Of a DNA stretch of 64,000 nucleotides, positions 1 to 16,979 are shown piece by piece. A program made the translations under genes and the position numbers. Under the pieces are notes generated by a model. That model searched no databases and had not been told where the DNA came from. It worked only from the letters and a program-made list of their open reading frames with translations. The first letter of the stretch is position 1. Every line of letters begins with the position of its first letter. The DNA comes from a virus, in the IMG/VR virus record IMGVR_UViG_3300034409_000017, positions 1,137 to 65,136 of that record. The stretch is one strand, 5' to 3'.

Positions 1-51
1 GGCGACCAAATGCATACAATTTCTATGAAAAGGGGCAGCAAAAAGATTTAA
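1..51 (+). CDS. C-terminal end (truncated by window) of a 29-aa-repeat family protein
   Basis: Frame 1 reads GDQMHTISMKRGSKKI*, matching the terminal half-repeat of the paralogues (GLQMGEISRKRGW, AYEMKQISMMRKN); followed by the same terminator. Confidence 0.8.
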   Translation, partial: GDQMHTISMKRGSKKI

Positions 52-64
52 TCTCCTAAGAAAC

Positions 65-103
65 CCCCAGCAGCTTATTTTGGTTGCTGGGGATTTCATT
101 TTG
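65..103 (+). terminator. Rho-independent terminator after repeat gene
   Basis: CCCCAGCAGC-ttattttg-GTTGCTGGGG stem followed by ATTTCATTTT; repeated at 1628. Confidence 0.75.
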
Positions 104-122
104 AAAATAATTCAAAAATGGG

Positions 123-212
123 TTGATTTTTAGGATGCTGTGTCATATAATTATTATATGGCTTGAGGAAATAGGTTCCCAAGCAATTTCAATCAATAAT
201 TAGGAGATAATT
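123..212 (+). promoter_or_regulatory. Repeated leader copy 1 (sigma70 promoter, 5' hairpin, RBS)
   Basis: TTGATT(123)-17bp-TATAAT(146); GCTTGAGGAA..TTCCCAAGC hairpin; AGGAGATAATT-ATG. Confidence 0.9.
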
Positions 213-842
213 ATGAAAACACAAAAGAAAAATGAGTTTTTAAACTTGCTTTGCGATTTACATAACAACACAAAAGAAGGTGAGGATTGCTCACTTTCTT
301 ACGACACTTTACAGCAATTAAGAGATTATTTTTTGCCCAGTAGTCGAGTACCAAAAGATATATATCAATTTCTCTACTACCTAACACCAAAAATCTATCA
401 GAACCAGACAGACTCACCACTTACAAAAGTTCTTTTTGACGGTCAGTATTGCGTTTCTTGTAACGGGAATATGATATTCTATAAACTGGCTGCGCCCGGT
501 ACTGTGGGGCTTTATACAGCTACAAAAACCGATTTAATCGAGCATCAAAAAGAAATTAAAGGCTATCCAGACTGGAAAGCCGCAGCGAATTTTAATGAAG
601 ATCGAAATTATTATAATTTTGATGTTAGTGAGTTGGAAACTGCATGGCTGGGTTCTGGCAAAACTCTTACCCTATGTTACAGCATAACAATAGGGAACGA
701 TGTGCGACGAATAAATCGCAAATACTGGGACCTCATTAAAAATTTCCAACCTAAATTTTATATGGATAGTAAAGAGCCTCAAAATCTGTATGGTCGTTGC
801 AACCTGGGAATGTTTACTATTGGTTGCATAAAAATAAATTAA
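213..842 (+). CDS. Hypothetical early protein, weak resemblance to beta-clamp-like domain
   Basis: 209 aa behind leader; VSCNGNMI...GYPDW recalls ATDGHRL...YPD of clamp-like proteins. Confidence 0.7.
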   Translation: MKTQKKNEFLNLLCDLHNNTKEGEDCSLSYDTLQQLRDYFLPSSRVPKDIYQFLYYLTPKIYQNQTDSPLTKVLFDGQYCVSCNGNMIFYKLAAPGTVGLYTATKTDLIEHQKEIKGYPDWKAAANFNEDRNYYNFDVSELETAWLGSGKTLTLCYSITIGNDVRRINRKYWDLIKNFQPKFYMDSKEPQNLYGRCNLGMFTIGCIKIN

Positions 843-850
843 AAAAAGGG

Positions 851-941
851 TTGATTTTTAGAATGCGGTGTCATATAATTATTATATAGCTTGAGGAAAT
901 AGGTTCCCCAAGCAATTTCAATCAATAATTAGGAGATAATT
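851..941 (+). promoter_or_regulatory. Repeated leader copy 2
   Basis: TTGATT(851)-17-TATAAT(874), hairpin and RBS nearly identical to copy 1. Confidence 0.9.
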
Positions 942-1607
942 ATGAAACAATACAGCAAAAAACAATTAAAAGTAATTGCCCGTGGAAAAGGGAAAAAAGA
1001 AGCATACGGCAATATTGATGATTTATGCCCATACAAGTACAAAGCCAAGCAAATGGCTCGCATTTCACTTGGAAGGGGCAATGATGAAGAGTTCAGCAAT
1101 ATCGATGATCTTTGCCCAAAAAGATATAATGCCAAGCAAATGGGGAAAGTTTCACTTGGAAGAGGCAATCACCCATATTATGGAAATATTGACCATCTGG
1201 ATCCAGCAAAATTTGATGCTGCCCAAATGGGGGCGATTTCACGTGGAAGAGGCAACGGGCAACATTATGGCAGCGTAGACGATTTATGCCCAGCTGACTA
1301 TAATGGAGAACAAATGCGTTTGGTTTCGCTTGGAAGGGAAAAGAAAAACTATTTTGGAAATGCCGACAACCTGGATCCAGCTAAATACAATGCGGATCAA
1401 ATGTGGTGGGTTTCACTTGGAAGGGGCAAAGATTCAAGGTATGGCAATATTGATGATCTTTGCCCAACTAAGTACAATTCAGACCAAATGCTTTTGGTTT
1501 CAAGTGGCAGGGGCAGCGATCAATATTGTGGGAATATCGATGATCTGGATCCAGCTGAATATACTGGTTTGCAGATGGGAGAAATTTCAAGGAAACGCGG
1601 CTGGTAA
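942..1607 (+). CDS. 29-aa tandem repeat protein (7.5 repeats)
   Basis: Unit (Y/F)xxxQMxx(I/V)SxGRGxxxx(Y/F)GNIDDL(D/C)Pxx; 3+7x29+15=221 aa. Confidence 0.92.
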   Translation: MKQYSKKQLKVIARGKGKKEAYGNIDDLCPYKYKAKQMARISLGRGNDEEFSNIDDLCPKRYNAKQMGKVSLGRGNHPYYGNIDHLDPAKFDAAQMGAISRGRGNGQHYGSVDDLCPADYNGEQMRLVSLGREKKNYFGNADNLDPAKYNADQMWWVSLGRGKDSRYGNIDDLCPTKYNSDQMLLVSSGRGSDQYCGNIDDLDPAEYTGLQMGEISRKRGW

Positions 1608-1627
1608 CCCTTAATCCCCATTAAAAC

Positions 1628-1665
1628 CCCCAGCAGCTTGTTTTGGTTGCTGGGGATTTCATTTG
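1628..1665 (+). terminator. Rho-independent terminator after repeat gene
   Basis: Same CCCCAGCAGC/GTTGCTGGGG stem plus T-rich tail as at 65. Confidence 0.75.
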
Positions 1666-1696
1666 GGTTTCATTTTTAAAATAATTTAAAAATGGG

Positions 1697-1787
1697 TTGA
1701 TTTTTAGAATGCAGTGTCATATAATTATTATATGGCTTGAGGAAATGGGTTCCCCAAGCAATTTCAATCAATAATTAGGAGATAATT
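1697..1787 (+). promoter_or_regulatory. Repeated leader copy 3
   Basis: TTGATT(1697)-17-TATAAT(1720), hairpin, RBS. Confidence 0.9.
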
Positions 1788-2114
1788 ATGAAAAAAGCAG
1801 TTATAACTAATTTTAATGAAGTTTTAGGATTTGTAGATGTTGAAAAACACGTTGGTTATGTAGATGTTGCGGGGTACGTAACTTGGAAATGGCAAAATAC
1901 TTATAAACAAGACCCGAATTACGATACAAATGAAGACCCGTATAACATACCATTGGTCGAGGTTGAGTCTCAAGTAATTGATAGTTGCGTTAATGTCAGG
2001 TCATACAAATGCACAGCAAATAAAAAATATTTTAAAGATGAGATTTTATTTGATTGTGATGGCATTAAAACGGCTGTCGATAGTTTTGGCGACACCGTTT
2101 ATTATCTCATATAA
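1788..2114 (+). CDS. Hypothetical early protein
   Basis: 108 aa ORF behind leader/RBS. Confidence 0.75.
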   Translation: MKKAVITNFNEVLGFVDVEKHVGYVDVAGYVTWKWQNTYKQDPNYDTNEDPYNIPLVEVESQVIDSCVNVRSYKCTANKKYFKDEILFDCDGIKTAVDSFGDTVYYLI

Positions 2115-2184
2115 GTTTTATTTACTGCTGAATAAGCAGCTCAGAAAATAATTATAGTTTATAATTTTGAACCGCCGCATAGGT

Positions 2185-2235
2185 GGCTTAGAAAATAGTT
2201 CCCAAGCAAGTTCAATCAATAATTAGGAGATAATT
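2185..2235 (+). promoter_or_regulatory. Partial leader copy (hairpin remnant plus RBS, promoter part replaced)
   Basis: GCTTAGAAAATAGTTCCCAAGC..TTCAATCAATAATTAGGAGATAATT. Confidence 0.75.
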
Positions 2236-2640
2236 ATGGAACAATACAATAAGCAAAGAATCAGCGCCATTGGAAGAAGCGGCAATCGAAAATATGGTAA
2301 TGTGGACAATCTTAAATGGTTTAAGCACAATGCCGACCAAATGGAATGGATTTCCCGAGGAAGGGGTCAATATCCAAGGTTTGGGAATATCGATGATTTG
2401 TGCCCAAGCAAATATAATGCTGCCCAAATGGAATGGATTTCCCGAGGAAGGGGTAGCAGCGCGGATTACGCCAATATTGATGATCTCGATCCAAACAAAT
2501 TCAATGCCAGCAAAATGGTTAATGTTTCGCTTGGAAGAGGGGAGGATTCAGCATTTGGTAATATTGATGATCTGGATCCAGCCAAATTTGGTGCTGCCCA
2601 AATGGAGGATATCTCCATACGCCGCGGCAGCTCATTTTAG
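2236..2640 (+). CDS. 29-aa tandem repeat protein (about 4.5 repeats)
   Basis: QMxxISRGRG...GNIDDL(C/D)P units; paralogue of 942..1607. Confidence 0.92.
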   Translation: MEQYNKQRISAIGRSGNRKYGNVDNLKWFKHNADQMEWISRGRGQYPRFGNIDDLCPSKYNAAQMEWISRGRGSSADYANIDDLDPNKFNASKMVNVSLGRGEDSAFGNIDDLDPAKFGAAQMEDISIRRGSSF

Positions 2641-2679
2641 TTGCTGGGGATTTTATTTTGAAAATAATTCAAAAAGGTG

Positions 2680-2770
2680 TTGATTTTTATAAAGAGGTGT
2701 CATATAATTATTATATAGCTTGAGGAAATAGGTTCCCCAGGCAATTTCAATCAATAATTAGGAGATAATT
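2680..2770 (+). promoter_or_regulatory. Repeated leader copy
   Basis: TTGATT(2680)-17-TATAAT(2703), hairpin, RBS. Confidence 0.9.
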
Positions 2771-3007
2771 ATGAAAAAATTACGTTTAGTAGATATAAAT
2801 ACCAATGGGTATTGTAAAGAGTGTAAGCATGCCATTTTAATGGAATTGGTGGATAAATATGACGAGAATTATAATTTTAAATCTTATCCATCTAACATTA
2901 CTGTGCAATTTTGTGGTTCTTGCGAAGAGTATGAAGCCATTCCAGGTGAAGAGATTGACCCTATGGAAGGTTTAGAGGCCATAGAAAAAACTGATTGCAT
3001 TTGTTAA
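2771..3007 (+). CDS. Small putative zinc-binding protein
   Basis: CKEC...CGSC, behind leader. Confidence 0.7.
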   Translation: MKKLRLVDINTNGYCKECKHAILMELVDKYDENYNFKSYPSNITVQFCGSCEEYEAIPGEEIDPMEGLEAIEKTDCIC

Positions 3008-3019
3008 CATTATAGGCTT

Positions 3020-3048
3020 TGGGGTGGTAGCCGTATAATACCGCCCCA
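3020..3048 (+). other. GC-rich intergenic hairpin
   Basis: TGGGGTGGTA-gccgtataa-TACCGCCCCA; no clear U-tract. Confidence 0.55.
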
Positions 3049-3070
3049 CATAAATAAAACGGGAGTTGTT

Positions 3071-3682
3071 ATGAAAGTGAATATACAAAGTTTAAGAGAC
3101 TACGGCGCCGTCTATAAGGCGTTACGTGGAACTTCTAATTGCATAGAGATTGCTGTGCAGCGACTTGAAGATAAGGAATGGCTTTGGGTTGAAGAAACTC
3201 ATAGCATGCTGAAAGAAGTGAACAAACACTATTGCGATAATGACTTTTGGAAACTTCCTATGTTTCTGAAAGACTTTAGGGTGGACTATTTCAGCAGGGT
3301 AGATTATTTCAGCCCAGCGAAGAATGAACCTTACGCGACGGGTTTCCAATACAAAACTGACTTGTTTACTTTTGAATTCTGTTGTAGGGAAGCTGATTAT
3401 AAAGAAGATGGAGTACATATAACAAGTGAAAATGTCATCTTTGTATTCAACCACGATGGAACAGAAACTATAGGAAACTTAGAAACCCTTAAGGAGTACG
3501 TTCAAAAGACAAAGGAATTGTGGTATGATAATCGATATGATGAGGAGTACAAGACTAAGTACTTTCCTATTGGGTACAATATGGATTACTATAGGGAAGA
3601 AGCCTATACCTCTTTAATAGAGGCTTTAAAGACTACGGTGAAAAGCCCACTAAGACCACTCCCAGGTTATGTTTGTGAGTAG
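3071..3682 (+). CDS. Hypothetical protein
   Basis: 203 aa, GGGAG RBS; internal RVDYFS-RVDYFS duplication. Confidence 0.75.
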   Translation: MKVNIQSLRDYGAVYKALRGTSNCIEIAVQRLEDKEWLWVEETHSMLKEVNKHYCDNDFWKLPMFLKDFRVDYFSRVDYFSPAKNEPYATGFQYKTDLFTFEFCCREADYKEDGVHITSENVIFVFNHDGTETIGNLETLKEYVQKTKELWYDNRYDEEYKTKYFPIGYNMDYYREEAYTSLIEALKTTVKSPLRPLPGYVCE

Positions 3683-3763
3683 ATTTTTATTGGTGCGGAC
3701 GTTAGGTTTAAATCGCTTAGCCTTCGCGCTGTAACTTTTAACGATTTAAAGAGGAGTTTTATT

Positions 3764-4168
3764 ATGAAAAAGTATGATAACAATCAATGGCATTGGGTTT
3801 CCCTTGGCAGGGGCGAAAATGCCCTTTACGGCAATATTGATGATCTCGATCCAATAAAATTCTGTGCCAGCAAAATGGTTAATGTTTCGCTTGGAAGAGG
3901 AAAAGATTCAGCCTTTGGCAATATCGATGATCTGGATCCGGATAAATATTGTAGGGTTCAAATGCACAGAATTTCTCTTGGAAGAGATAGTAGTAACTAT
4001 TTTGCCAACATCGATGACCTGGATCCAGAAAAGTATGATGGCGACCAAATGCTTTGGATTTCAGTTGGAAGGGGAGACTACAAAGATTTTGGCAATATCG
4101 ATGATCTGGATCCAGAAAAATTTATGGCGTATGAAATGAAGCAGATTTCAATGATGCGCAAAAACTGA
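3764..4168 (+). CDS. 29-aa tandem repeat protein (4.5 repeats)
   Basis: 3+4x29+15=134 aa; same scaffold; GAGGAG RBS. Confidence 0.92.
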   Translation: MKKYDNNQWHWVSLGRGENALYGNIDDLDPIKFCASKMVNVSLGRGKDSAFGNIDDLDPDKYCRVQMHRISLGRDSSNYFANIDDLDPEKYDGDQMLWISVGRGDYKDFGNIDDLDPEKFMAYEMKQISMMRKN

Positions 4169-4223
4169 TTTCATTTGAATTTCATTTGGAAAACACCTTT
4201 AAAACACTAATTAGGAAATAATT

Positions 4224-4832
4224 ATGAAAAAATTTCAACCTTGCGCTTTTCAAATAGAAGATAGCGCCGACTTTCTTCGGGTTTCATTTCAACTTGAAGA
4301 GCAAACCACACGGTTTTGTGACATTAAATATGATGCAAACCGCTGGGGGTTTGAAAAGTACACGCAGCAAGAAGCCAAAGACATAATCAAGGGAATCCTT
4401 TTACAGGGGAAAAATAGAGAAAAACTCCTAAAGGATTATTTTGATGCCGAGCTGTTAAACTGTGCAGTGGAAAAGATTATGAATAGAATTGAAAGAAAAT
4501 TCATTCATAAGGTATTTTTAAAAAAGAAGAAAAAGAAGAAAACGATATACAGTTATCGCAGAATAAGCAGGCTTGAAATGTCCAATGATGATGTGTATTC
4601 GATTTCATTTGATGAATTGCCAACTTTGGGGGTCGATGAAAGAGGTGATTTTTGGTACGACGATTTAATCCCCACCAAAAACGAAGCAATGGAATTATCC
4701 GGAAACCTTGTGGTAATCGGGTATGGAAGGCACGCAGGGAGAAGATTTTGGCAACTTCCCCAACTCGTTAAAAATAAAATCAGGCTTCAAGTTAAAAAAC
4801 AAGAAGTTTCTAAAGAATATATAGGGAGTTAA
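4224..4832 (+). CDS. Hypothetical protein
   Basis: 202 aa; preceded by leader-type RBS TAATTAGGAAATAATT; poly-Lys tract. Confidence 0.7.
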   Translation: MKKFQPCAFQIEDSADFLRVSFQLEEQTTRFCDIKYDANRWGFEKYTQQEAKDIIKGILLQGKNREKLLKDYFDAELLNCAVEKIMNRIERKFIHKVFLKKKKKKKTIYSYRRISRLEMSNDDVYSISFDELPTLGVDERGDFWYDDLIPTKNEAMELSGNLVVIGYGRHAGRRFWQLPQLVKNKIRLQVKKQEVSKEYIGS

Positions 4833-4834
4833 TT

Positions 4835-5143
4835 ATGTTAAGCTGGATACATCCAAAACAAACAACCGAAGGGAAGAACATACAAAACACTTTCGAAGTT
4901 ACCAGGATCCCAAGTGACCTGGAGTTTTACGATTTCATTAAAACCCACATGTCTCAAAATAGGATCTTTAGGCTAACCGGCGATTTTGTTGGGGCTGCTC
5001 AAATAATAAAGTTGGCAAATCAAGCCAGCAGCCTTTTTCTCCCTCGCCAATACCTTACTTATTGCACAGAAAAAAAAGATGGCAAGTGCTTAATAGAGAT
5101 ATCCTGGATTGAAAAACCTCGAGAAAAAGAGAAATATCTCTAA
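4835..5143 (+). CDS. Hypothetical protein
   Basis: 102 aa, tightly coupled to upstream gene, GGGAG RBS. Confidence 0.65.
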   Translation: MLSWIHPKQTTEGKNIQNTFEVTRIPSDLEFYDFIKTHMSQNRIFRLTGDFVGAAQIIKLANQASSLFLPRQYLTYCTEKKDGKCLIEISWIEKPREKEKYL

Positions 5144-5149
5144 TTAGTG

Positions 5150-5239
5150 TTGACATTTTTAATGGAGTGTCATACAATTATTATATAGCTTGAGGAAATG
5201 GGTTCCTAAGCGATTTCAATAAATAATTAGGAAATAATT
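5150..5239 (+). promoter_or_regulatory. Repeated leader copy
   Basis: TTGACA(5150)-17-TACAAT(5173), GCTTGAGGAA..TTCCTAAGC, AGGAAATAATT-ATG. Confidence 0.88.
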
Positions 5240-5482
5240 ATGAAAAGAACTTCTATGATAGAAATTAAGGAAAGCAGAGAAAATCTAACCGGATTTTTGC
5301 ATATCTCAAAAATAACTGAGCTTAGCAAAATAATGGGTGCACCAAAACGGGTCGTTTCAAATCTAACTTTTTATGGATTGTGCGATCTTATCGTTGAGCT
5401 CTATGATTTCAAAACCCTGACAAACAAAAAAGCAGAGGCGTGCTTTGAGATTTTAAGGGTTGAAAATACAAGGCTTAAATAA
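5240..5482 (+). CDS. Hypothetical protein
   Basis: 80 aa behind leader. Confidence 0.7.
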   Translation: MKRTSMIEIKESRENLTGFLHISKITELSKIMGAPKRVVSNLTFYGLCDLIVELYDFKTLTNKKAEACFEILRVENTRLK

Positions 5483-5490
5483 CCTTTGGG

Positions 5491-5516
5491 ATTGGGGCTG
5501 TTATGGCAGCCCCAAT
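5491..5516. terminator. Terminator hairpin between convergent arms
   Basis: ATTGGGGCTG-ttatgg-CAGCCCCAAT at the +/- convergence point. Confidence 0.7.
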
Positions 5517-5531
5517 AGCCTTCTCTATTTA

Positions 5532-7487
5532 TTAGTTCAATTGGCTAACGCCTTCTTTTTTATTCACAATTATTACATCATCAAACATATCCTGAAAATT
5601 GGCATCGTGGTCAATGGTGAATATTTGTTTTTCTTTAGACAATTCGCTTATAATATCAAATACTTTTTGCCTCCCTTCATAATCTAATCCAGAAAGCGGT
5701 TCATCCAAAACATTGAAATGAACTGGAAAGCCTATGCTTTTTTCTATTAGCAAACTAAAGGTAAAGAAGCAAGCTAAATCCACCCGTTGAGTTTCCCCTT
5801 CCGACAATGAATCCAAGCCCATTTTATTCCCATTCCGAATAACATAAATGTTTATTTCTGGGGTGGTATTTCCTTTTGAATTTTCTTTCCAGGAGGTAAC
5901 CTCGATCCTTTCAAAATCTAATCCCTGCTGCATACAAAAAGCGTTTAATAATTCCTGCAACACCTTAATGGTGTTATCGAAAGCAGAAAAGCGGAGATCC
6001 TTAAAGCCTTGAGCCCAATACTTGGAAAGGGCACTTTCTTGATGAAGTGTTTTAAGTTTTTCCTCAACTTCCTTTTTTTCTTTCTGCATTTCATCGAGAT
6101 CCTTTTCCTGATGTTCAATGCTCGTTTTAAGCTGGATCATAAATGGCTTATTCCTTGCCTCCTTCAATTGGGATTGAGCCACCAAAACCTTGGATTTTGC
6201 TTGCTCTATTTTGGATTCAATGGAGGCGGCTTCCGCCTTATCGTCAAGGTATTCCTTATTTATCTCGGCTATCTCGTCATCAAAAATCTGAGCAGATAAA
6301 GAAATGGCTTTTTCAAGTTCATTTCTCAATTCGGAGTACTTAGAATTTAATGAATCAAGCTCTTCGTGGATCTGGTTTCTTTGATCCTGCATTTCCTTTA
6401 ACTCAATTTTAAGTGCTTCTTCCCTCTGATCAAATACAACAGCCTCTTTTTCTATGGCTTCATTGTCTGGGGGATTTGGTAACTTTTGACCGCATTTGCT
6501 GCAATCCTCCCTCCCTTTCTGCTTTCTTAAATCTGCTGCCTTGTTTTGTTCTTTTTGGATTTCAAGGTTAATTCCTATAGTGCAATCCTGAACCTCCCGA
6601 ACCAACTTATTGAACTCCCCAATTTTACCATCTATCTCCTTGGTCTTTTCTTTGTGGTTTGTTTCTAAAATTGATTTTTTGAGTTCTTTCTTTTTCTTTA
6701 CTTCTTCTATTCTTTGACCAAAATGGGCTAAAAGAGGAGGAGCAGTATCCTTATCCAAGGATTCGTAATGCTCCTCGGCTTTTCTTAGCTCTTCTTCTGC
6801 CTCTTTTATTTCGATTTCATTTATATCTTCTTCTTCTTTCAACCTTCTTTTTGACGCAGTTAAAAAGCCTTCGGAAGAGCTTAACTTTTCTACCAACTTA
6901 TCCGATTGCTCTTTTGTATGGAAATATGAAACCTCTAAAGTTTTAGATTCCTTATAAGCTACTTCCCTTGCTTTTTCCCATTGCTGCCCCTGCGCTAAAA
7001 TATCAATAACCTCGGCTCGCTCTTTAGGACTTAGGCTGCTAAAGGTATTAAATTTTTTCCCATAGAAAGCCACTAAAGATAAAATCTCCGGAGAAACGCC
7101 AAGCACTTCAAATACCCTTTGGGTGCCTTGTTTGCTATCATGAAAGGTTTCTTTGTTTCCATCCAAGGATAACTCAATGGCTTTCTTATTGGAACTCCAT
7201 TCCCTTGTAATTTCAACCTGGTGATCCTTATGGCTAAATTCGATGGTTACCACCACTTCCTTTTTTCCTATTCGAACTACCTCGGCGGCTCTAACGCCTC
7301 TAACCGTTTTACCCGTTAAACACCAGTAAACAGCCTCAAATAAGGAAGATTTTCCAGCGCCGTTAGAGTTATCCTCTTTTTCCAAAGAACCCTTAACCAG
7401 CACTAAATTACTTGAGTTTGCCAAATCCAGCACTTCATTTTCTCCAAAGGAGAAGAAATTTCTAAGTTTTATTTTTTTCAGTTTCAT
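5532..7487 (-). CDS. SbcC/Rad50/T4 gp46-like ATPase
   Basis: Walker A NGAGKSS, coiled coil with CSKC hook, LSEGE signature, VLDE Walker B. Confidence 0.93.
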   Translation of the reverse strand: MKLKKIKLRNFFSFGENEVLDLANSSNLVLVKGSLEKEDNSNGAGKSSLFEAVYWCLTGKTVRGVRAAEVVRIGKKEVVVTIEFSHKDHQVEITREWSSNKKAIELSLDGNKETFHDSKQGTQRVFEVLGVSPEILSLVAFYGKKFNTFSSLSPKERAEVIDILAQGQQWEKAREVAYKESKTLEVSYFHTKEQSDKLVEKLSSSEGFLTASKRRLKEEEDINEIEIKEAEEELRKAEEHYESLDKDTAPPLLAHFGQRIEEVKKKKELKKSILETNHKEKTKEIDGKIGEFNKLVREVQDCTIGINLEIQKEQNKAADLRKQKGREDCSKCGQKLPNPPDNEAIEKEAVVFDQREEALKIELKEMQDQRNQIHEELDSLNSKYSELRNELEKAISLSAQIFDDEIAEINKEYLDDKAEAASIESKIEQAKSKVLVAQSQLKEARNKPFMIQLKTSIEHQEKDLDEMQKEKKEVEEKLKTLHQESALSKYWAQGFKDLRFSAFDNTIKVLQELLNAFCMQQGLDFERIEVTSWKENSKGNTTPEINIYVIRNGNKMGLDSLSEGETQRVDLACFFTFSLLIEKSIGFPVHFNVLDEPLSGLDYEGRQKVFDIISELSKEKQIFTIDHDANFQDMFDDVIIVNKKEGVSQLN

Positions 7488-7497
7488 GTTTTTGATT

Positions 7498-7824
7498 TCA
7501 TCTGTTCCAATTTACTTCTTCATTTTCTTTCTGCACACCTATCTTATTCTCTAAAAGCTGCGCATTAAAGTCTGTGTTTCCAACTACGACCTTAGCTGAA
7601 TAATCTCCATACCCCTCATCCTTAATGCAAAGTTTTACATTCTTAAATTTAAGGTTTTCAGTAAGCCAATCTTTGTTATAGTTTGAAATCGGAATATCAA
7701 TATCGGTAAATGATATGGATCTTTTAACGGTTATTGCGAATTGGAGTTCCACCTCAGCAATCATGTGACATTGGGAACTTATAGCTAATATTCTGGCTTT
7801 GTAGATATTTTTCCTACTTTTCAT
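7498..7824 (-). CDS. Degenerate thermonuclease (SNase)-fold protein
   Basis: YKARIL...ELQFAI..KRSISFTDIDIP...FNAQLLE pattern of phage SNase-like proteins, catalytic residues absent. Confidence 0.5.
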   Translation of the reverse strand: MKSRKNIYKARILAISSQCHMIAEVELQFAITVKRSISFTDIDIPISNYNKDWLTENLKFKNVKLCIKDEGYGDYSAKVVVGNTDFNAQLLENKIGVQKENEEVNWNR

Positions 7825-7853
7825 TTTAATTTTTACCTTTTTAATTTTAATTC

Positions 7854-7931
7854 TAAAATCTATATAGATTTTAATTTCAAAAATTTATATAAATTTTAAT
7901 TCTATATTTTACAATCTATATAAAATATAGA
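7854..7931. repeat. AT-rich palindrome cluster, candidate origin
   Basis: Palindromes TAAAATCTATATAGATTTTA (7854-7873) and AAAATTTATATAAATTTT (7880-7897); inverted repeat TCTATATTTTA/TAAAATATAGA (7901-7931). Confidence 0.6.
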
Positions 7932-7997
7932 TACGATCCCCAATGTTTCATCCACCTACGATAGTGAATCGATTTTACAATGCAAGATGATAACACT

Positions 7998-8957
7998 TTA
8001 TAGAAAAGATAAAGAATGTTCAATAAAATGAGGAGCTTGGATAAAAGAAAAAAATTTGGATTTAGATTTAAAAAGAAAAAGTTCATCTAAATCTTTAATA
8101 ATTTTAGGGCAAATTGCGCCCCAATCTGGCACCACCACGTTATACCCCATATCGAGCAAAATTAGCCTCATATAGGTTATTGAATTTCTATTCGCGCCCC
8201 TATCCATCGCCAATACTAAAGTATGGGCATTTTCAAAGGTTTTTACTATCTCTTCTATTAGATTTTCGGAAATAGAGGATCCTAATATCGCCACCCCATA
8301 TCCAATTGGTATTCTAAGGCAATCAAAGATTCCCTCAGTTATTATTCCAATCTCGGGGTTCATTTTCTGTACCCACTCTTTACCAAAGAGAAATGGGGAA
8401 TCCTCTATTCTTTTCCACCATCTTGGACCGACCACATCGCTGCTGTATTTCCTTGCGTTGATGTTTTCTCCGTTTTTAAAAACTATGTAGCCATTCAGCT
8501 TTCCAGTGCCAATCATTAGCCCAGCATCAAAAGCAATGTCTAAATCTAATCCTCTTTCTCTATCCCTTTTTTGAATGTTTTCGAAGTGAGGCTTTGCTTC
8601 CAACCATTCTAAAATCGGCAAATCCTTTTCTTGTACCTCTCTCCAATACACTTGTTTTTTAGGAGTTTGCGGTTTTTTGATTTCATCTGGAAGATAGATG
8701 TCTTCCTTTTTGTAATTTATGGAATCCCAAGGAATACTTGGATAGAGAGTTTTAAGTTTTCTCCTTATTTTGAGCCATCCACCACCTTCTCCACACACAA
8801 AACATTTAAACCACAAATCAAATTCGTGGATTCCACAGTGGTATTTAGACTCATTGCAAAATGGGCAGCATATGTTTATGTGCTCGCGCCCAACATTGGT
8901 GCCTTGCTCTTTGGTGGCTATTTTCGCTGCATTTAAGAGGTATCTTAATTCAGACAT
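7998..8957 (-). CDS. DNA primase (zinc finger plus TOPRIM)
   Basis: CPFC..H..CFVC, TEGIFD, LAMD, KDLDE. Confidence 0.88.
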   Translation of the reverse strand: MSELRYLLNAAKIATKEQGTNVGREHINICCPFCNESKYHCGIHEFDLWFKCFVCGEGGGWLKIRRKLKTLYPSIPWDSINYKKEDIYLPDEIKKPQTPKKQVYWREVQEKDLPILEWLEAKPHFENIQKRDRERGLDLDIAFDAGLMIGTGKLNGYIVFKNGENINARKYSSDVVGPRWWKRIEDSPFLFGKEWVQKMNPEIGIITEGIFDCLRIPIGYGVAILGSSISENLIEEIVKTFENAHTLVLAMDRGANRNSITYMRLILLDMGYNVVVPDWGAICPKIIKDLDELFLFKSKSKFFSFIQAPHFIEHSLSFL

Positions 8958-8977
8958 GCCTACGGTTATTAACTAAG

Positions 8978-9015
8978 TTTGCAGCGGTTCCTGCTCAAAT
9001 TTTGCAGCGGTTCCT
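8978..9015. repeat. 15-bp direct repeat x2 upstream of primase
   Basis: TTTGCAGCGGTTCCT at 8978 and 9001. Confidence 0.8.
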
Positions 9016-9025
9016 TTAGATATTT

Positions 9026-9529
9026 CTACTTATCAATTGGAATTTTGGCACTGGTATAGAAATCATCCAATCTTTTTTGCTCTTCCTCAGTCATCTGATA
9101 CCCACCTGAAATATTCTTTGTGTTCTTAATAGCACACAACAAACTCTTTGGGCAAGGGGCTTCGAATACAATCGTTACTTCATTGTCACCAGTTTTTCCA
9201 TCGGAATATCTTATTACTTTGCTGTTTAGCACTTGGCAGATTTTTTGTATTCGATCCATATGAGTTGAAGCTCGATGACCCTTCAAATATACCTCTTCGG
9301 TTTCTGGTACTTTTTCGAAGGAATCCTTATAAGTGGCTATGCGGATTAACAAATTCCCCGCGCATTCACTGATTTTAATTGATTCTTTTTCACAGCAGTA
9401 ATAGAGACCGTACTGGCTGCATATTCCATCGGTGTTTTCTATAGCATTTAAAGTGTTTATTACTTCCTTTACCTTTTTCGCTATTTCCTTGGAACACGTT
9501 GGGTTACTTTGAATTATTCTTTTTTGCAT
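9026..9529 (-). CDS. Hypothetical protein
   Basis: 167 aa ORF in operon, AAGG RBS. Confidence 0.65.
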   Translation of the reverse strand: MQKRIIQSNPTCSKEIAKKVKEVINTLNAIENTDGICSQYGLYYCCEKESIKISECAGNLLIRIATYKDSFEKVPETEEVYLKGHRASTHMDRIQKICQVLNSKVIRYSDGKTGDNEVTIVFEAPCPKSLLCAIKNTKNISGGYQMTEEEQKRLDDFYTSAKIPIDK

Positions 9530-9538
9530 ATTTACCTT

Positions 9539-9946
9539 TTATTTTAATTTATAATCAAACTGCTGCTCCCACCAATCGTTTGGCGTATCTTTGTGATCTA
9601 TTACAAATTTAATACGTTTTAGTGCTTGAGCTTTGCTGTTAGTGCAGCCTTCCCATCCCCATTTACAATTAAATAGAAAATGCCATATTTTCCGATCTTT
9701 AGAATTGCAACGATTAAGCTCTAAAAAATTATTACTCCACGTATAAAAATTGATGTCACCATTATCATTATAAGTAACTAAATCGGGGGCTAATACAATG
9801 GAATTTCCAATTATACAACCAACTGTATTGCATTCCATTGTTTTATTGTCTTCCTCATTAAGTCTAAAATAGGACAAATTGAGCTTTTTGGCTGGTACCT
9901 TTCCTTTGATGTGGTGGTAAATTCTATTCAAATTCGCAATGTTCAT
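9539..9946 (-). CDS. Hypothetical protein, paralogue of 13388..13801
   Basis: ECNTVGCIIG...WHFLF...QALKRI. Confidence 0.8.
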   Translation of the reverse strand: MNIANLNRIYHHIKGKVPAKKLNLSYFRLNEEDNKTMECNTVGCIIGNSIVLAPDLVTYNDNGDINFYTWSNNFLELNRCNSKDRKIWHFLFNCKWGWEGCTNSKAQALKRIKFVIDHKDTPNDWWEQQFDYKLK

Positions 9947-10863
9947 CTTTTCTCCTCTAAGTGTGATAAAATATGTGAAACAACATCAACTGTCCAGCCA
10001 TTGCCCAGCATTTTATAGCGCTGCGCAGTGCTGACCCCCTTCGTATAATTATCTGGAACTGTTTGCAGTCTTTCACATTCAATGGGGGTTAGTTTTCTAT
10101 AAAAAGGATGCTCATATCGCATATAAGAATGAGAGGTAGTAAGGGTATTGCTTTTGTGCCTCATCAGTCTTCCTCGTCTATTTTTACTCTTTGGTTGCGT
10201 ATAGTCAAAACAGCAGCCATTTTCTACTTCAACAAATCCAGTTTTGGTGGCTTCAGTGACAATTAAGCAAGTTGAAATCGCACCCCATCCATTTTGAACC
10301 TTTCTAATTTTTAATGGGGGCTTTATGGCGATCCTGGATCCTGTGGTGCTGCCTTCTAAAACATCTTTAAGCAGTATTTTTTTATCTTTTATGGGGTTTC
10401 TTCGCTCAAGGTTCGTCCAGTATAGCCTCTTCCTGTTTTGGGCGGATACAAGAGCCGAATTTATTAGAATTGGTTCAACCCCCATATATTTTGATATTAC
10501 AGCTTGCCACTCTTTTTTCATTTCCACATTTTCCAATAAAAAATAATCCGGATTGCACTCTCTTAACAATCGAACAAACTCAAAAAATAAAATTGATTGG
10601 GGATCCTCAAAATTCAACCCTTTTCCAGCTTTGCTAAATCCAGTGCAGGGACTCCCACCAATCAATAAATCAATTTTAGGCAAAGCATCTCCTTTGATGT
10701 GGCGAATATCACCAAGCTGAATGGTTTTGGGGTAATTTTTTTGACAAATTTCTATTGCGGACTTGTCAATTTCAGCGGCATAGTAGTTACTATACTTTAT
10801 GCCAGCTCTATTAAGAGCTATCTGACCACAACTCATTCCGTCAAAAAGACTTAAAACATTCAT
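9943..10863 (-). CDS. C5 DNA cytosine methyltransferase
   Basis: LSLFDG, GGSPC, LLENV, QNRKRLYW, YKMLGNG motifs. Confidence 0.95.
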   Translation of the reverse strand: MNVLSLFDGMSCGQIALNRAGIKYSNYYAAEIDKSAIEICQKNYPKTIQLGDIRHIKGDALPKIDLLIGGSPCTGFSKAGKGLNFEDPQSILFFEFVRLLRECNPDYFLLENVEMKKEWQAVISKYMGVEPILINSALVSAQNRKRLYWTNLERRNPIKDKKILLKDVLEGSTTGSRIAIKPPLKIRKVQNGWGAISTCLIVTEATKTGFVEVENGCCFDYTQPKSKNRRGRLMRHKSNTLTTSHSYMRYEHPFYRKLTPIECERLQTVPDNYTKGVSTAQRYKMLGNGWTVDVVSHILSHLEEKR

Positions 10864-11156
10864 TTATCGCTGTTGTTTTTATTTAAAAATTTTTCACTAA
10901 ACCACTCAGCAGGCAGGCAGAGAAGACTTTCGCCCGTCAGAAAACCATGAGACCTAATACACCTGAAGTTGGGGTGGTCGGTTGGCTGAAAGATTTTGAT
11001 TTTGATGTTTTGCTCGAACTTTTCTTTTTTCACATAGGTGGGTTTAGTTCTCTTTTTTGGCTCGGTAACGAGCATGAAAACAAATAACCCCACAGCGATC
11101 AACACCCAGATGGCAGGAATAGAAAACTCTTTAAACGCATTGCCAGCTCTTCTCAT
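10860..11156 (-). CDS. Small membrane-anchored protein
   Basis: N-terminal hydrophobic helix. Confidence 0.65.
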   Translation of the reverse strand: MRRAGNAFKEFSIPAIWVLIAVGLFVFMLVTEPKKRTKPTYVKKEKFEQNIKIKIFQPTDHPNFRCIRSHGFLTGESLLCLPAEWFSEKFLNKNNSDK

Positions 11157-11172
11157 AGCTACTCCTTTTTAT

Positions 11173-11385
11173 TTAATTGATTAAAATTATTTGATTATAG
11201 ACACCATAGTCTTCTTGGTGCTCTTCAATCAAATATTTCTTGCCATTTTCTTTTCTAATGCCCACCCTTTTAGTATCTGAGTGTGCCTGTATAATTTCAA
11301 ATTCTCCTAAGCACTTAGGCTCTTCACCTGACTGTTTAGGATCGTTGTAAACCTTTTGGTAAATTGTTTCAAAATTTGTACTCAT
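11173..11385 (-). CDS. Hypothetical protein
   Basis: 70 aa, ATGA-coupled to upstream gene. Confidence 0.6.
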   Translation of the reverse strand: MSTNFETIYQKVYNDPKQSGEEPKCLGEFEIIQAHSDTKRVGIRKENGKKYLIEEHQEDYGVYNQIILIN

Positions 11386-11897
11386 GCTTTCATTGTTTTA
11401 TGGTTTTCAAGGCGGGCTTTAAACCCTTCAAGGTGCTCAACTATTTTCTTCATAGTGATATTCTTGTAGTTACATCCAAAAGCGTGAGGGGAGGAAAATA
11501 GATTTCCTCCATACTCATTTTCCCATAATGATGGATTTTTATGTAGCCAGCTTCTTAAATGGTACTGGTCATTAAACCCTAAGAGTTTCACGATTTTATC
11601 CCTACCAAAAGTAAATGCTATGTGGCAGCCTCTACACTTTAATTCTTTTTGGCGCTTTTTAATGGCTTCAATTTCCTCCGTATAGGTAGTACCCAACCAA
11701 CCAGCAAAGCAGTGAAAGGATCCTATTTCATGATTTACTATTTCTACCCCCTTTCGGTTTGTGTGGGAATCATATACCGTGGTTGTAATCATGTTTACAG
11801 CATTTCCTTTTTTATAAGCATCCGTGGTTTTTAACCGATCTATTACTTCGGTTAATCCAGGTATGGAGACGCAAAAATTTAGTTTTTGTTTTTTCAT
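11382..11897 (-). CDS. Hypothetical protein, possible distant relative of 9539/13388 family
   Basis: GSFHCFAGW motif, C-terminal IVEHLEGFKARL. Confidence 0.7.
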   Translation of the reverse strand: MKKQKLNFCVSIPGLTEVIDRLKTTDAYKKGNAVNMITTTVYDSHTNRKGVEIVNHEIGSFHCFAGWLGTTYTEEIEAIKKRQKELKCRGCHIAFTFGRDKIVKLLGFNDQYHLRSWLHKNPSLWENEYGGNLFSSPHAFGCNYKNITMKKIVEHLEGFKARLENHKTMKA

Positions 11898-12577
11898 TGG
11901 TTTTTCTGCGGTTTTGCGTATACGAATGGTTCTTCTTTATCCCCACTGGCTAAGCCCAATTCAAACAAAAAGTCTAGATTTTTAAAGAATCCAAGCACGC
12001 AGTATTCTTCTGTTTTATCTTCTTTAGAATTTATGCAATCTAATAAACTCTCAAACCCGTGAGAAGGGCGCTGGAGGCATACTTCATCCGAATAGCGTTT
12101 GTCATCTAAAGCCTCGCACCTATAAGCGTGGATTCCCTTATATTCAGCGCAGTTTTCATCGATCTTATACCCAATATACCTTGCTTTGTTTCGATTTTCT
12201 GCAAAAATATAAGCTATTGGGCGCACATCTTCACTGCTTAGAGTTCCAGCAGTGACCAGAAAACATTTATCTGTGGATATAGTTTTTGCTGGTTCCTCCT
12301 CTTCTATAAAAGCCTTATCCAACTTTCTGATGATTTTTTCTTCGCAAAACACCAAAAAAGAATACATAAAGTTTGTGAAGTAATAGGGATGCTCGATTTT
12401 TTTGGTATTTGTAAAAATCCAAAGCATGCCAATTTTAACCGCCGCTGCTAATTTCAGTATAATGCAGGATACAAAGTAAACCAACAAAGTTACCAAACAG
12501 AGGAGCAGTATTGAAAGCAGAGCGCCTATCTGTTTTGTTGTTTGCCAAAGTGTGATTTTTTCTTTTCTTTTTTTCAT
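11894..12577 (-). CDS. Hypothetical protein with N-terminal TM segment
   Basis: 227 aa, ATGA overlaps on both sides. Confidence 0.65.
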   Translation of the reverse strand: MKKRKEKITLWQTTKQIGALLSILLLCLVTLLVYFVSCIILKLAAAVKIGMLWIFTNTKKIEHPYYFTNFMYSFLVFCEEKIIRKLDKAFIEEEEPAKTISTDKCFLVTAGTLSSEDVRPIAYIFAENRNKARYIGYKIDENCAEYKGIHAYRCEALDDKRYSDEVCLQRPSHGFESLLDCINSKEDKTEEYCVLGFFKNLDFLFELGLASGDKEEPFVYAKPQKNQ

Positions 12578-13387: not shown

Positions 13388-13801
13388 TTATCTCCTCTCT
13401 TTAGTTTCTAGAAAATACTGATAATTATAATCCCAGTCATCAGGGACTTTCTGATGCTCAATGAAGTAGTCAAGCCTTTTTAGGGCTTGGTTTTTGCTTC
13501 CAATATTACCGCATTCACCCCACTCCATATCGAATAAGAAGTCCCAAGAAGTCGAATAGAGATTCAATCCTGTATACGCAACACTCCAAGCATCAAAGTT
13601 TATATTTCCGTTATCATACCTTGTGATTAAGTCTTCAGCTAATTTAACGCTATGACCGAGTATACATCCTACACTATCACATTCCGTTGTTCTTCGGCTT
13701 CCCTCATTCACTTCTTTTCTATAAATCCGCATATCAAATAAATGCGCTGGGACGTTATCTCTTAGATGGTCCCTAAGGGCTTTTATGTTTTTAATATTCA
13801 T
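13388..13801 (-). CDS. Hypothetical protein, paralogue of 9539..9946
   Basis: ECDSVGCILG...WDFLF...QALKRL. Confidence 0.8.
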   Translation of the reverse strand: MNIKNIKALRDHLRDNVPAHLFDMRIYRKEVNEGSRRTTECDSVGCILGHSVKLAEDLITRYDNGNINFDAWSVAYTGLNLYSTSWDFLFDMEWGECGNIGSKNQALKRLDYFIEHQKVPDDWDYNYQYFLETKERR

Positions 13802-14913: not shown

Positions 14914-15059
14914 AGTTTAAAAATTTCCACGGTAACAATAGGAAAGGCTATTGTTGCTAATAAAAGCATTAAGAAGGCAAAAACTGCCAATACTGGCAAT
15001 ATTTTGTCTATATTTGCCGCTTTTTTCAGCGTAAAGAAAAAACAACGAATGGTTTCCAT
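14901..15059 (-). CDS. 52-aa membrane protein (not in ORF track)
   Basis: METIRC...VLAVFAFLMLLLATIAFPIV; coupled to the queD stop. Confidence 0.5.
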   Translation of the reverse strand: METIRCFFFTLKKAANIDKILPVLAVFAFLMLLLATIAFPIVTVEIFKLWKS

Positions 15060-15532
15060 TAAAGCCTCGTCCTTTTTACGGTTGCACTATTGCCTGCATG
15101 TTCAAAGCAGGTAACGCTGTAAACTTCAACCGTTTTATTTATAGCACCTTCTTGATCTTCGTTTTTCAGCATCTGCAAAATGCTTTCAACTTGATTAAAA
15201 ACAGTCTCTGCAAATTTTTCACACCCAACGTTGGGCAGGTATCGAAGGTCTGCAACGTGGGTCAGGTTTTGCAACGTATCTTTTTTAGGATCATCCTTTG
15301 CAATGATTAGGGTATGGTCAAAGAGATAGTGAAGCATCTTTTTTACTGGTTTAAGGCTTCCAAAATCCATCACCCAATTTTTCGAGTCTAACTCTTTACA
15401 ACTAAAAGTTATCTCAAACCCCAAACTATAGCCGTGCAGCTTAGAGCAGTGACTGTGGTCGGCTCTCCACTGGCGGAAAACACAGCTTAGCCCTGTTTCC
15501 GTTCCGTAAGTCTTAGTGCAGTAGTACCGCAT
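15059..15532 (-). CDS. queD: 6-carboxy-5,6,7,8-tetrahydropterin synthase
   Basis: CSKLHGYS, WVMDFG.LK, FDHT, GCEKFAE, FEHAGNSA. Confidence 0.93.
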   Translation of the reverse strand: MRYYCTKTYGTETGLSCVFRQWRADHSHCSKLHGYSLGFEITFSCKELDSKNWVMDFGSLKPVKKMLHYLFDHTLIIAKDDPKKDTLQNLTHVADLRYLPNVGCEKFAETVFNQVESILQMLKNEDQEGAINKTVEVYSVTCFEHAGNSATVKRTRL

Positions 15533-15549
15533 ATTTAATCTCCTGTAAT

Positions 15550-16869: not shown

Positions 16870-16924
16870 AATTTCTCCTGCGTTTTTCGCGTTGTTTTAA
16901 AATTGTTTTGAAACTTCTATAAGA

Positions 16925-16979
16925 ATTATACTACACAAGGTTAAGAATGTAAACTATTTTTTCAATCTATTTAACTTTT
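16925..16979 (-). promoter_or_regulatory. sigma70-like promoter with conserved 22-bp upstream element
   Basis: Reverse complement TTTACA-17-TATAAT; upstream 22-mer 21/22 identical to 20928-20949. Confidence 0.7.

Follow-up and report, generated by a model that had tools for sequence, protein, structure and literature searches.

The 71.9-kb genome of an uncultured siphovirus contains ten paralogues (R1-R10) of a protein made of 29-residue repeats. They are all intact and co-oriented, lie in one 10-kb block adjoining terS, and together take up 6.7% of the genome. The proteins are 76-221 aa long with 2.6-7.6 repeats each, and they keep a fixed scaffold while helix and loop blocks have been swapped between the genes. 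We see about an even chance that they are a library of protein binders, made early and diversified by recombination, that would act on host defences, probably on those that target DNA. What is new here on the DNA side is a stretch of about 4 kb nearly without AC and GT at the terS end of the block. The window analysed is a 64-kb stretch of this genome that begins inside R7, whose start is 362 nt upstream; R1-R6 and the AC/GT-free block are outside it (Table 1).

The gene array and its promoter cassettes

An earlier note on this DNA had described four paralogues in the window. The three complete reading frames and the R7 tail are all there, but the family has ten members. The 87-nt unit was recovered as a period by TRF, and in every one of the ten genes the motifs are 29 or 58 aa apart. 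The half-repeat endings in that description are half of the picture, as each protein begins as well as ends on a helix. Unitigs from sequencing run X1, which may itself be the source sample, cover positions 72-3894 at a depth of 28-38 with zero letter differences, and the array is thus not a collapsed assembly.

Table 1. Features of the repeat gene block in the window (positions in the window unless stated otherwise)
Feature	Position	Strand	Remarks
R7, 3' end	1..51	+	Whole R7 137 aa, genome G000:C1 774-1187
GC-rich hairpin after R7	65..93	+	-24.8 kcal/mol, z -5.8; terminator-like, weak U tract
Sigma70-type promoter, leader and RBS cassette	103..215	+	Putatively drives unrelated 209-aa ORF (213-842)
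Promoter, leader and RBS cassette of R8	831..944	+	
R8	942..1607	+	221 aa, 7.6 repeats
Hairpin after R8	1628..1655	+	z -3.4
Promoter cassette	1677..1790	+	Putatively drives unrelated 108-aa ORF (1788-2114)
R9	2236..2640	+	134 aa
Promoter cassette	2660..2773	+	Putatively drives unrelated 78-aa Cys-rich ORF (2771-3007)
R10	3764..4168	+	134 aa
Last promoter cassette of the early block	5130..5242	+	ORF 5240-5482

The proposal that the genes are expressed early fits their surroundings, with seven of the ten paralogues having their own putative sigma70-type promoter cassette of the early type. There are 12 copies of the cassette, the block has eleven co-oriented, host-type promoters, and hairpins follow R1-R8. 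R9 is preceded by the leader/RBS portion of the cassette only, and R10 has its own RBS and no cassette promoter. At a related locus, L011, the repeat gene also has its own promoter cassette inside an array of such cassettes, and at locus L004 the repeat block is divergent from terS, terL and portal. In the unitigs of X1, the one run used and possibly the source run, the joints that could have pointed to cassette recombination resemble cross-mapping between paralogues.

Such an anatomy and early context would also be compatible with binders of host housekeeping machinery (RNA polymerase, replication, division or membrane-entry factors) that serve takeover or DNA entry. In this case the eleven promoters would suit transcription-assisted entry, for which T7 is the analogy. 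We regard this as unlikely, because conserved targets need no shuffled library and the closest cultured capsid relatives have no tblastn match to the 29-aa family.

The repeat unit and its predicted fold

Unit statistics are based on 43 full units from R1-R10 and 135 units from homologues; at the score that gave these 135, shuffled targets gave 0 matches, and the homologue units are not a chance result. The scaffold is indeed nearly invariant, with a column entropy of 0-1.3 bits in the 43 units against 2.5-3.4 bits at variable columns. AlphaFold2 confidently predicts the solenoid that had been proposed, with one helix per repeat (R10: pLDDT 97.4, pTM 0.89, all five models at least 96.9; R8: pLDDT 90.7, pTM 0.82). 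The predicted unit is an 11-residue helix and an 18-residue loop. The conserved residues would build the core, positions 6, 9, 10 and 13 would lie along the outside of the helix, and positions 17-20 would make up a loop. Variability is concentrated in one loop and on one side of the helix, where its moment peaks at 100 degrees (permutation p 0.029 for own units and 0.021 for homologue units), and from this periodicity the variable helix face would be exposed. There is no hydrophobic segment that could be a transmembrane helix (top 19-residue Kyte-Doolittle mean 0.47), as the earlier note had stated.

All the residue pairs that had been named after QM were located in the sequence. The second residue of the pair, position 10, is not as freely variable as had been thought. 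It is Trp in 17 of 43 units, and the aromatics F, W and Y together make up 40% of this position in own units and 30% in homologue units, where base composition predicts 8%. In a sister 24-aa repeat (see below) the same position is E or Q in 32/43 units, which suggests that here an exposed site was made sticky. At position 28, Cys is found in 24/43 own units and Asp in 73% of homologue units.

A variable adjacent pair, together with an Arg ladder that hardly varies and aromatics at regular intervals, would also suit proteins that read DNA or RNA at one base per unit in the style of TALE, PUF or PPR proteins, where the two residues behind QM would serve as the code. The end caps are basic in this phage, and two TALE-like proteins occur among the 90 matches of the profile search. 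However, TALEs use a small alphabet of variable di-residues, and here the 43 own units have 28 different pairs and the 135 homologue units have 92, with no small di-residue code. The net charge per unit is -0.7 (own) and -2.0 (homologues), the repeats are few for such a reader, and there is one helix per repeat, not two. A kinship with TALE or PPR proteins, to which the earlier note had likened the family in concept, was not supported: the hhalign probability to TALE-like repeats is 0.2%, below the values for ankyrin (1.4%) and TPR (0.7%) proteins of that tail of matches, which served as controls, and PF03377 (TALE, with a 33-35-aa two-helix repeat) has no match to the 29-aa one-helix unit. 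We hold nucleic-acid reading to be unlikely. T7 Ocr, and T4 IPI* against GmrSD, are known examples of leading-end anti-restriction. An Ocr-type DNA mimic was rejected for lack of a strong negative charge, as the net charge of R1-R10 is -6 to +8 and the homologues are mildly acidic.

Searches of the PDB by sequence gave nothing meaningful. Searches by fold with Foldseek and VIA listed no close match, although this falls short of proving that the fold is new. Against ankyrin, TPR, HEAT and LRV-type folds the best VIA scores were Z 7.3 (rmsd 14.8) and Z 5.4 (rmsd 7.1). At E<=0.001 the sole Foldseek match was a 119-aa BFVD model, by its length probably ORF262 of Vibrio phage BONAISHI. In the ESM Atlas, feature matches were below 0.9 and structure rows were based on models with a pTM of 0.24-0.28; neither were used.

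Relatives of the family

The earlier note did not recognise the family, and no characterised one fits: Pfam, PHROGs, NCBIfam and PADLOC gave only sub-threshold noise. The ankyrin, TPR and HEAT models of Pfam had no match among the 58 members scanned. About 77 relatives were found, some in operon-like arrays, and many are short with only 2-4 helices. Of the profile search matches, 13 tail proteins (QM repeat, TALE-like, ankyrin, TPR, Cys-rich and one unassigned) were removed before units were counted; they contain 0 full 29-aa units. IMG/VR scans gave no relative. A GTDB scan gave two loci, L011 (a phage-like contig in a MAG) and L012, where a match of only 28 residues was dropped as spurious.

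BONAISHI ORF262 (AXH71003.1), annotated as hypothetical, is a cultured member of the family. It is the single family match in a 289-kb jumbo phage, against ten paralogues here. The main text of PMC6207643 does not mention this ORF, and no such repeat is described in the consulted portions of the polyvalent-protein paper (PMC5512222) and the Schizotequatrovirus paper (PMC12028318).

A repeat of 23-25 aa without a name, which we label QM, also came up in tblastn and in the tail of the profile search. Examples are P0098, P0105, P0106, P0112-P0114, P0092 and an ORF of MT835757 in L014. It shares a helix profile with the 29-aa family, P-x-(K/E)-(Y/F)-x3-QM-x2-I-x2-G, with hhalign probabilities of 86.5% and 91.6% over 14-17 columns. 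It differs in its period, in having no GRG or GNIDDL box, and in its polar position 10. The QM repeat is often found inside larger proteins, and the members scanned have no fitting Pfam model. It is likely a distant sister family, and to our knowledge it has no known function.

Exchange between paralogues and selection

That the set is diversified, as the earlier note proposed, is evident at the DNA level. For 39 of the 43 units the nearest DNA neighbour sits in another gene, and there are 17 identical tracts of 30-46 nt. A PHI-type test supports recombination (p 0.001; third positions p 0.007), distances of helix blocks and loop blocks are uncorrelated (rho 0.02, 903 pairs), and six unit pairs have a common loop (0-1/15 nt differ) with helices that are 8-17/39 nt apart. 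Helix and loop blocks have thus been swapped between paralogues across conserved boxes, so that surfaces are combined anew. A target of a diversity-generating retroelement was considered and rejected, because there is no RT among the 67 ORFs scanned, which cover the small ORFs in part, and differences are not specific to adenine: in eight close unit pairs, 47/86 differences involve A and all base pairs are represented.

Positive selection at the variable sites, as implied by the earlier note, was not borne out. Omega is 0.145-0.15 at scaffold columns and 0.44-1.32 at variable columns (helix face 0.88-1.07; pair 9-10 0.54), the latter from 2-4 codons per class in recombining sequences and without a likelihood-ratio test, and these values are compatible with relaxed constraint. 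All-pair pN/pS is saturated. Between loci L007 and L011 the repeat gene shows 74% identity, a dS of 0.89 and a dN/dS of about 0.17, while all six neighbours compared are 88-100% identical with a dS of 0.04-0.26. The repeat gene is far more diverged than its neighbours, and is therefore taken as an exchanged allele. Between L006 and L004 the repeat genes are 98-100% identical, the same as their neighbours.

An omega near 1 at variable columns would also be expected if the conserved scaffold did one job in all paralogues, with one protein target or as a small-molecule sponge, and the copies, arisen by cassette duplication, gave early dosage while variable sites drift. The polar scaffold residues R15, N23, D25 and D26 are 81-95% conserved across the 135 homologue units, single-copy members such as BONAISHI ORF262 exist, and promoter/terminator cassettes in many copies are an established cause of recombinational shuffling, according to the portions consulted of PMC2839356 and PMC4122927. 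We consider this explanation rather unlikely, given the aromatic excess at position 10, the L007/L011 allele exchange, and ten diverged intact copies that occupy so much of the genome, when one strong promoter would supply the dosage.

DNA depleted in AC and GT

The depleted stretch begins 176 nt upstream of terS, runs through R1-R3 and fades inward, with a change point at genome position 66,396. Five of the ten paralogues are on DNA largely stripped of AC and GT, and one 660-nt gene has none at all, its product being without Thr or Val. At six two-way codon choices in R1-R3, AC- or GT-bearing codons were used 0/173 times, and these genes contain 8 AC/GT sites against 123 +/- 9 under random recoding. 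L004, L011 and BONAISHI (L013) have no such purge in the stretches compared, so it is not a family trait.

Avoidance of classical type II sites was rejected, as AC/GT-free 6-mer palindromes occur at 32 per kb in the block against 9 per kb in the core. A one-way mutator was also rejected, because T is used over C at NAC codons, yet C over T at TGT/AGT. The phage has a DpdA-like gene (window 37,520-38,485) and preQ0/G+ pathway genes. There is weak support for GT as the phage's own protected context. In the core genome GTAC (0.98) and ACGT (1.01) are not avoided and CTAG (0.02) and GGCC (0.15) are, but MAR10 looks much the same. Phage CAjan modifies GA and GGC, not GT, according to the portion consulted of PMC7544227. 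The stretch fits a first-injected end that would be under selection at the DNA level.

A proposed library of early binders

For the binder library that we favour, the order of events may be as follows. The AC/GT-poor end would be injected first and would have to pass the host's DNA surveillance at a time when no phage protein has yet been made. The purge would have rid it either of sites that type I-like systems recognise or of those that carry the phage's own 7-deazaguanine mark. The repeat proteins would be the first products and would neutralise defence enzymes by binding, with different paralogues covering different host variants. It is only tentatively that we go further and propose that a GT-free first-injected 4-5 kb escapes the phage's own 7-deazaguanine mark or host sites, and that an antibody-like repertoire of mini-solenoids is directed each against a different DNA-surveillance enzyme. 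Equally speculative is the extension to a phage-side adaptive binder library with an amino-acid alphabet limited by a DNA-level rule and a fold without a solved relative.

If the targets of the paralogues differ, phages would have in this family a natural, small and modular binder scaffold diversified through shuffled blocks, a way to broad counter-defence that is overlooked by guilt-by-association screens. Protein design would gain a new repeat fold. Whatever the proteins do, the AC/GT-free end of this 7-deazaguanine phage would be a strong mark of selection acting on the DNA injected first. From it one can predict the location of the genome end, the end that is first to enter, and the base context that the phage modifies or the host attacks.

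Comparison with known systems

VLR, DARPin and alphaRep proteins are analogous diversified repeat scaffolds. The PDB structure 1LRV is a repeat solenoid with short helices; the likeness to it is at the generic helical-repeat level in VIA (Z 6.4, rmsd 12.0, 175 aligned; Z 4.7, rmsd 8.9, 106 aligned), with 6-8% identity and no match to Pfam LRV. The LRR loci of Flavobacterium psychrophilum, as described in the consulted portion of PMC10392669, also have tandem paralogues with a fixed scaffold, a variable face and recombination, but those are secreted bacterial proteins, whereas the phage proteins have no signal peptide and are predicted to fold differently. The PeSL cassettes of T4-like phages (consulted portions of PMC2839356 and PMC4122927) consist of a repeated sigma70-like promoter and stem-loop that flank accessory genes. 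The repeated sigma70-like promoter, leader and stem-loop around accessory ORFs are present here too, in this case in a siphovirus where ten genes of the cassette region belong to a single family. Anti-defence genes can be predicted from conserved early promoters, as far as the consulted part of PMC11065993 goes. In Autographiviridae it is only in the first-injected region that type I sites count (PMC12455610, consulted in part), and the likeness to their early region is one of restriction-shaped, first-entering DNA with variable anti-defence genes; here, a whole dinucleotide has been removed, stripping Thr and Val.

Genome and repeat genes

The phage genome is a single virus contig of 72,611 nt, of which the window covers 1137-65136. 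Because the contig ends overlap over 728 nt with 2 mismatches, we regard the genome as a circle of 71,883 nt; in IMG/VR it is entered as linear, with 93% completeness. PHROG matches (67 ORFs scanned) give a siphovirus gene set with terminase, portal, capsid, tape measure and its own polymerase, Rz-like spanins that point to a Gram-negative host, and a 7-deazaguanine set (GTP cyclohydrolase, QueD, QueE, QueC and a TGT/DpdA-like protein). The phage's capsid shares 54-55% identity with Vibrio Mardecavirus capsids. In the core (window 5532-64000), CTAG (0.02) and GGCC (0.15) are strongly avoided, CATG, CCGG, GATC and CGCG more mildly, and GTAC and ACGT show no avoidance. Two 135-137-aa ORFs without a family (window 9539-9946 and 13388-13801) look paralogous by eye, and a 955-aa ORF without a PHROG family (window 60356-63223) lies between the genes for the small and large terminase subunits.

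The four repeat-protein ORFs of the earlier note are real, and in the whole genome there are ten paralogues (R1-R10). All share one strand and point away from terS, in a block of 10 kb that crosses the contig join; a profile search of the whole genome found no others. They occupy 4,851 nt (6.7% of the genome) and have 2.6-7.6 units each, with the scaffold x-K-Y-n-x-x-Q-M-x-x-I-S-L-G-R-G-x-x-x-x-(Y/F)-G-N-I-D-D-L-(C/D)-P over 43 full units. A TTGA/TTGC...TATAAT promoter of its own, with a common leader and RBS, precedes each of seven genes (R1-R6, R8). This cassette occurs in 12 copies, the others standing before four small, unrelated ORFs within the block and before one opposite-strand gene. 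Hairpins follow R1-R8, with a U tract after R1-R4. The common leader (window 886-944, 158-215) folds into two hairpins, one at its 5' end and one whose loop contains the Shine-Dalgarno and whose stem takes in part of the start codon. The in-window part is tiled with zero differences by unitigs of one run, which may be the source sample.

Between R4 and R5, a 73-aa ORF with its own RBS runs antisense to the block (70,846-71,067, minus) and has no PADLOC match. Short tandem arrays are found at L002 1436-1579, 3149-3249, 4361-4432 and 6889-6949, with 17/28-nt units beside terS and 11- and 13-nt units in spacers; a 228-nt spacer in L002 is duplicated (89%). The array beside terS might act as a site for packaging or for terminase binding.

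Located features of the phage contig (L001 and L002 are stretches of the same contig)
Feature	Genome	Window or stretch	Remarks
R1	67,538-68,029		163 aa
R2	68,382-69,044		220 aa
R3	69,546-70,124		192 aa
R4	70,326-70,817		163 aa
R5	71,610-71,840		76 aa
R6	175-678	L001 175-678	167 aa; again at 72,058-72,561 in end overlap
R7	774-1187	window ..51	137 aa
R8	2078-2743	window 942-1607	
R9	3372-3776	window 2236-2640	
R10	4900-5304	window 3764-4168	
R1-R5		L002 2538-6840	outside window
AC/GT-depleted block, both strands	66,396-70,300	L002 1396-5300	outside window
7-deazaguanine pathway (QueC with adjoining amidotransferase-like gene)		window 15059-18350, 28538-29458, 36856-38485	PHROG

Relatives of the repeat family

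No curated family in Pfam, PHROGs, NCBIfam or PADLOC fits the repeat protein; the earlier note did not recognise the family either. A single-protein search found 1 relative and a ten-member profile 38; against 1.84 billion representatives, the profile gave 90 matches at E<=0.001 (57 at E<=1e-10), of which 13 tail matches were excluded and the remaining 77 have the motif by eye. Members with at least one full unit (56 fetched) are 55-240 aa long. On five metagenome contigs (L003, L005, L008, L009, L010) they lie back-to-back, most of them -8 to 20 nt apart, and an exact overlap joins L003 and L009 into one array of at least 6 genes. On contigs L004 and L006 a block that runs divergently from terS, terL and portal holds 2-3 copies, and L011 and L007 have a single copy with its own promoter inside a promoter-cassette array. 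In a pattern-based scan of 185,579 cellular genomes, which can miss distant members, the only true member was on L011, a phage-like contig. This contig, filed under a Magnetococcales MAG with an uncertain host link, carries about 18 promoter cassettes at 3797-12145, each followed by a small ORF. A member from a cultured phage is ORF262 of Vibrio phage BONAISHI.

Closest among other families is an unnamed repeat of 23-25 aa that shares the QM helix (hhalign 86.5% and 91.6%); no Pfam model fits the scanned members of its 24-aa form (L014 1221-3824; P0098, P0105, P0106, P0112-P0114). For repeats taken from the same search tail, hhalign gives only 0.2% to TALE-like ones, below ankyrin (1.4%) and TPR (0.7%), so that no kinship with TALE-like repeats is found. 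The family member P0004 has Trp at several scaffold Gly positions (11 W, 8 G), which would fit a host that reads TGA as Gly (code 25).

Predicted structure and variable face

The solenoid proposed in the earlier note is supported by structure prediction. AlphaFold2 models of R10 (58 sequences) reach pLDDT 97.4, with 5/5 models at 96.9 or above; for R8 (10 sequences) the best model has 90.7 and only 2/5 exceed 85. Each repeat in both predictions has a single helix of 11 residues (unit positions 5-15) plus a loop of 18. Foldseek gives a single BFVD match at E<=0.001, of 119 aa, which is probably the BONAISHI protein, and VIA finds generic solenoids only (best Z 7.3, rmsd 14.8 and Z 5.4, rmsd 7.1).

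Column variability in 135 homologue units follows that of the phage's own units (Spearman 0.96, partly circular since the units were picked with the own-unit profile), with the maximum of its helical moment at 100 degrees (p 0.021-0.029). This periodicity puts positions 6, 9, 10 and 13 on one side of the helix; on a helical wheel they would lie opposite the conserved M8, I11, S12 and R15, and the periodicity suggests that this face is exposed. Aromatic residues occupy position 10 in 30-40% of units and hydrophobic ones in 53-73%, vs mostly E/Q in the sister QM repeat, and position 13 is hydrophobic in 66-79%.

Two fusions put the repeat next to protein-binding domains: ankyrin repeats in P0061 (802 aa) and an SMI1/KNR4 domain, a sub-threshold match, in P0071. 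The units contain no small di-residue code, and that the repeats read a nucleic-acid code is very improbable.

Diversification by recombination

The diversity of the copies arises by recombination on a conserved scaffold, as seen from unit shuffling, unrelated block histories and the omega values of scaffold and variable classes. For 39/43 units the nearest unit belongs to another gene, often in a different register. Units are also connected by 17 identical tracts 30-46 nt long, of which 13 join different genes. The histories of helix and loop blocks are unrelated (rho 0.02; PHI-type p 0.001, third positions 0.007). No DGR signature turned up among the 67 ORFs scanned or in the differences between close unit pairs. 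In the orthologous contig pair L007/L011, divergence of the repeat gene greatly exceeds that of 6/6 neighbours at both synonymous and amino-acid sites, with changes at 7/20 face, 8/16 loop and 12/76 scaffold positions.

Two results count against fast evolution: the copies in L006 and L004 share 98-100% identity, and omega from codon models is 0.145-0.15 in the scaffold but only 0.44-1.32 in the variable classes. The diversified set of the earlier note is supported as far as recombination goes; these omega values do not establish selection for diversity. It is rather doubtful that the proteins have one conserved job, with copies serving dosage and variable sites drifting.

Loss of AC/GT near terS

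The repeat family is real and unnamed, and it is accompanied by an unexpected signature at the DNA level. AC/GT dinucleotides are nearly lost from a block whose left edge is sharp, 176 nt upstream of terS and adjoining the tandem array. Their odds ratio is 0.00-0.16 over 66.5-70.5 kb vs 0.69-0.84 in 8-kb core windows, and their density falls to 2 per kb vs at least 53 elsewhere; none of four control loci shows a comparable loss. GA/TC and CG are also low in the non-coding part. Over 660 nt R2 has no AC/GT, and its protein lacks Thr and Val; there are 4 sites in R1, 4 in R3, 14 in R4, 11 in R5 and 19-44 in R6-R10. In R1-R3 the AC/GT-free codon is used in 173/173 two-way choices, in both mutational directions. 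Observed vs recoded sites are 8 vs 123 +/- 9 in R1-R3, 25 vs 46 +/- 6 in R4-5 and 150 vs 189 +/- 10 in R6-10, and many surviving sites lie inside promoter cassettes.

Lambda-like packaging starts from a fixed end through terS. If this phage packages likewise, the purged end would be the last packaged and the first ejected, and with genes read along the direction of entry this matches the AC/GT gradient. Since AC/GT-free palindromes show no avoidance in the block, the pressure would act through either bipartite type I-like sites or the guanine mark that the phage itself makes. Type I sites are reported to matter specifically in first-injected phage DNA (PMC12455610). Phage CAjan is reported to mark GA and GGC (PMC7544227), so an own mark would need a different specificity here.

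We consider it an even call that the proteins form a library that recombines and supplies early binders, active inside the cell, against host defence proteins. The purged terS-side end would enter the cell first, and the repeat proteins would bind targets, which would be host defence proteins; housekeeping targets in the host are distinctly unlikely. Because of the purge, DNA-targeting defence systems are the likeliest class of target, and we propose them tentatively.

Comparison with known systems

Titles and abstract starts of open-licence papers and bioRxiv gave no description of this repeat family or of a dinucleotide-free phage end. Diversified repeat arrays are already reported in bacteria (PMC10392669), cassette shuffling in T4-like phages (PMC2839356, PMC4122927) and anti-defence discovery guided by promoters (PMC11065993).
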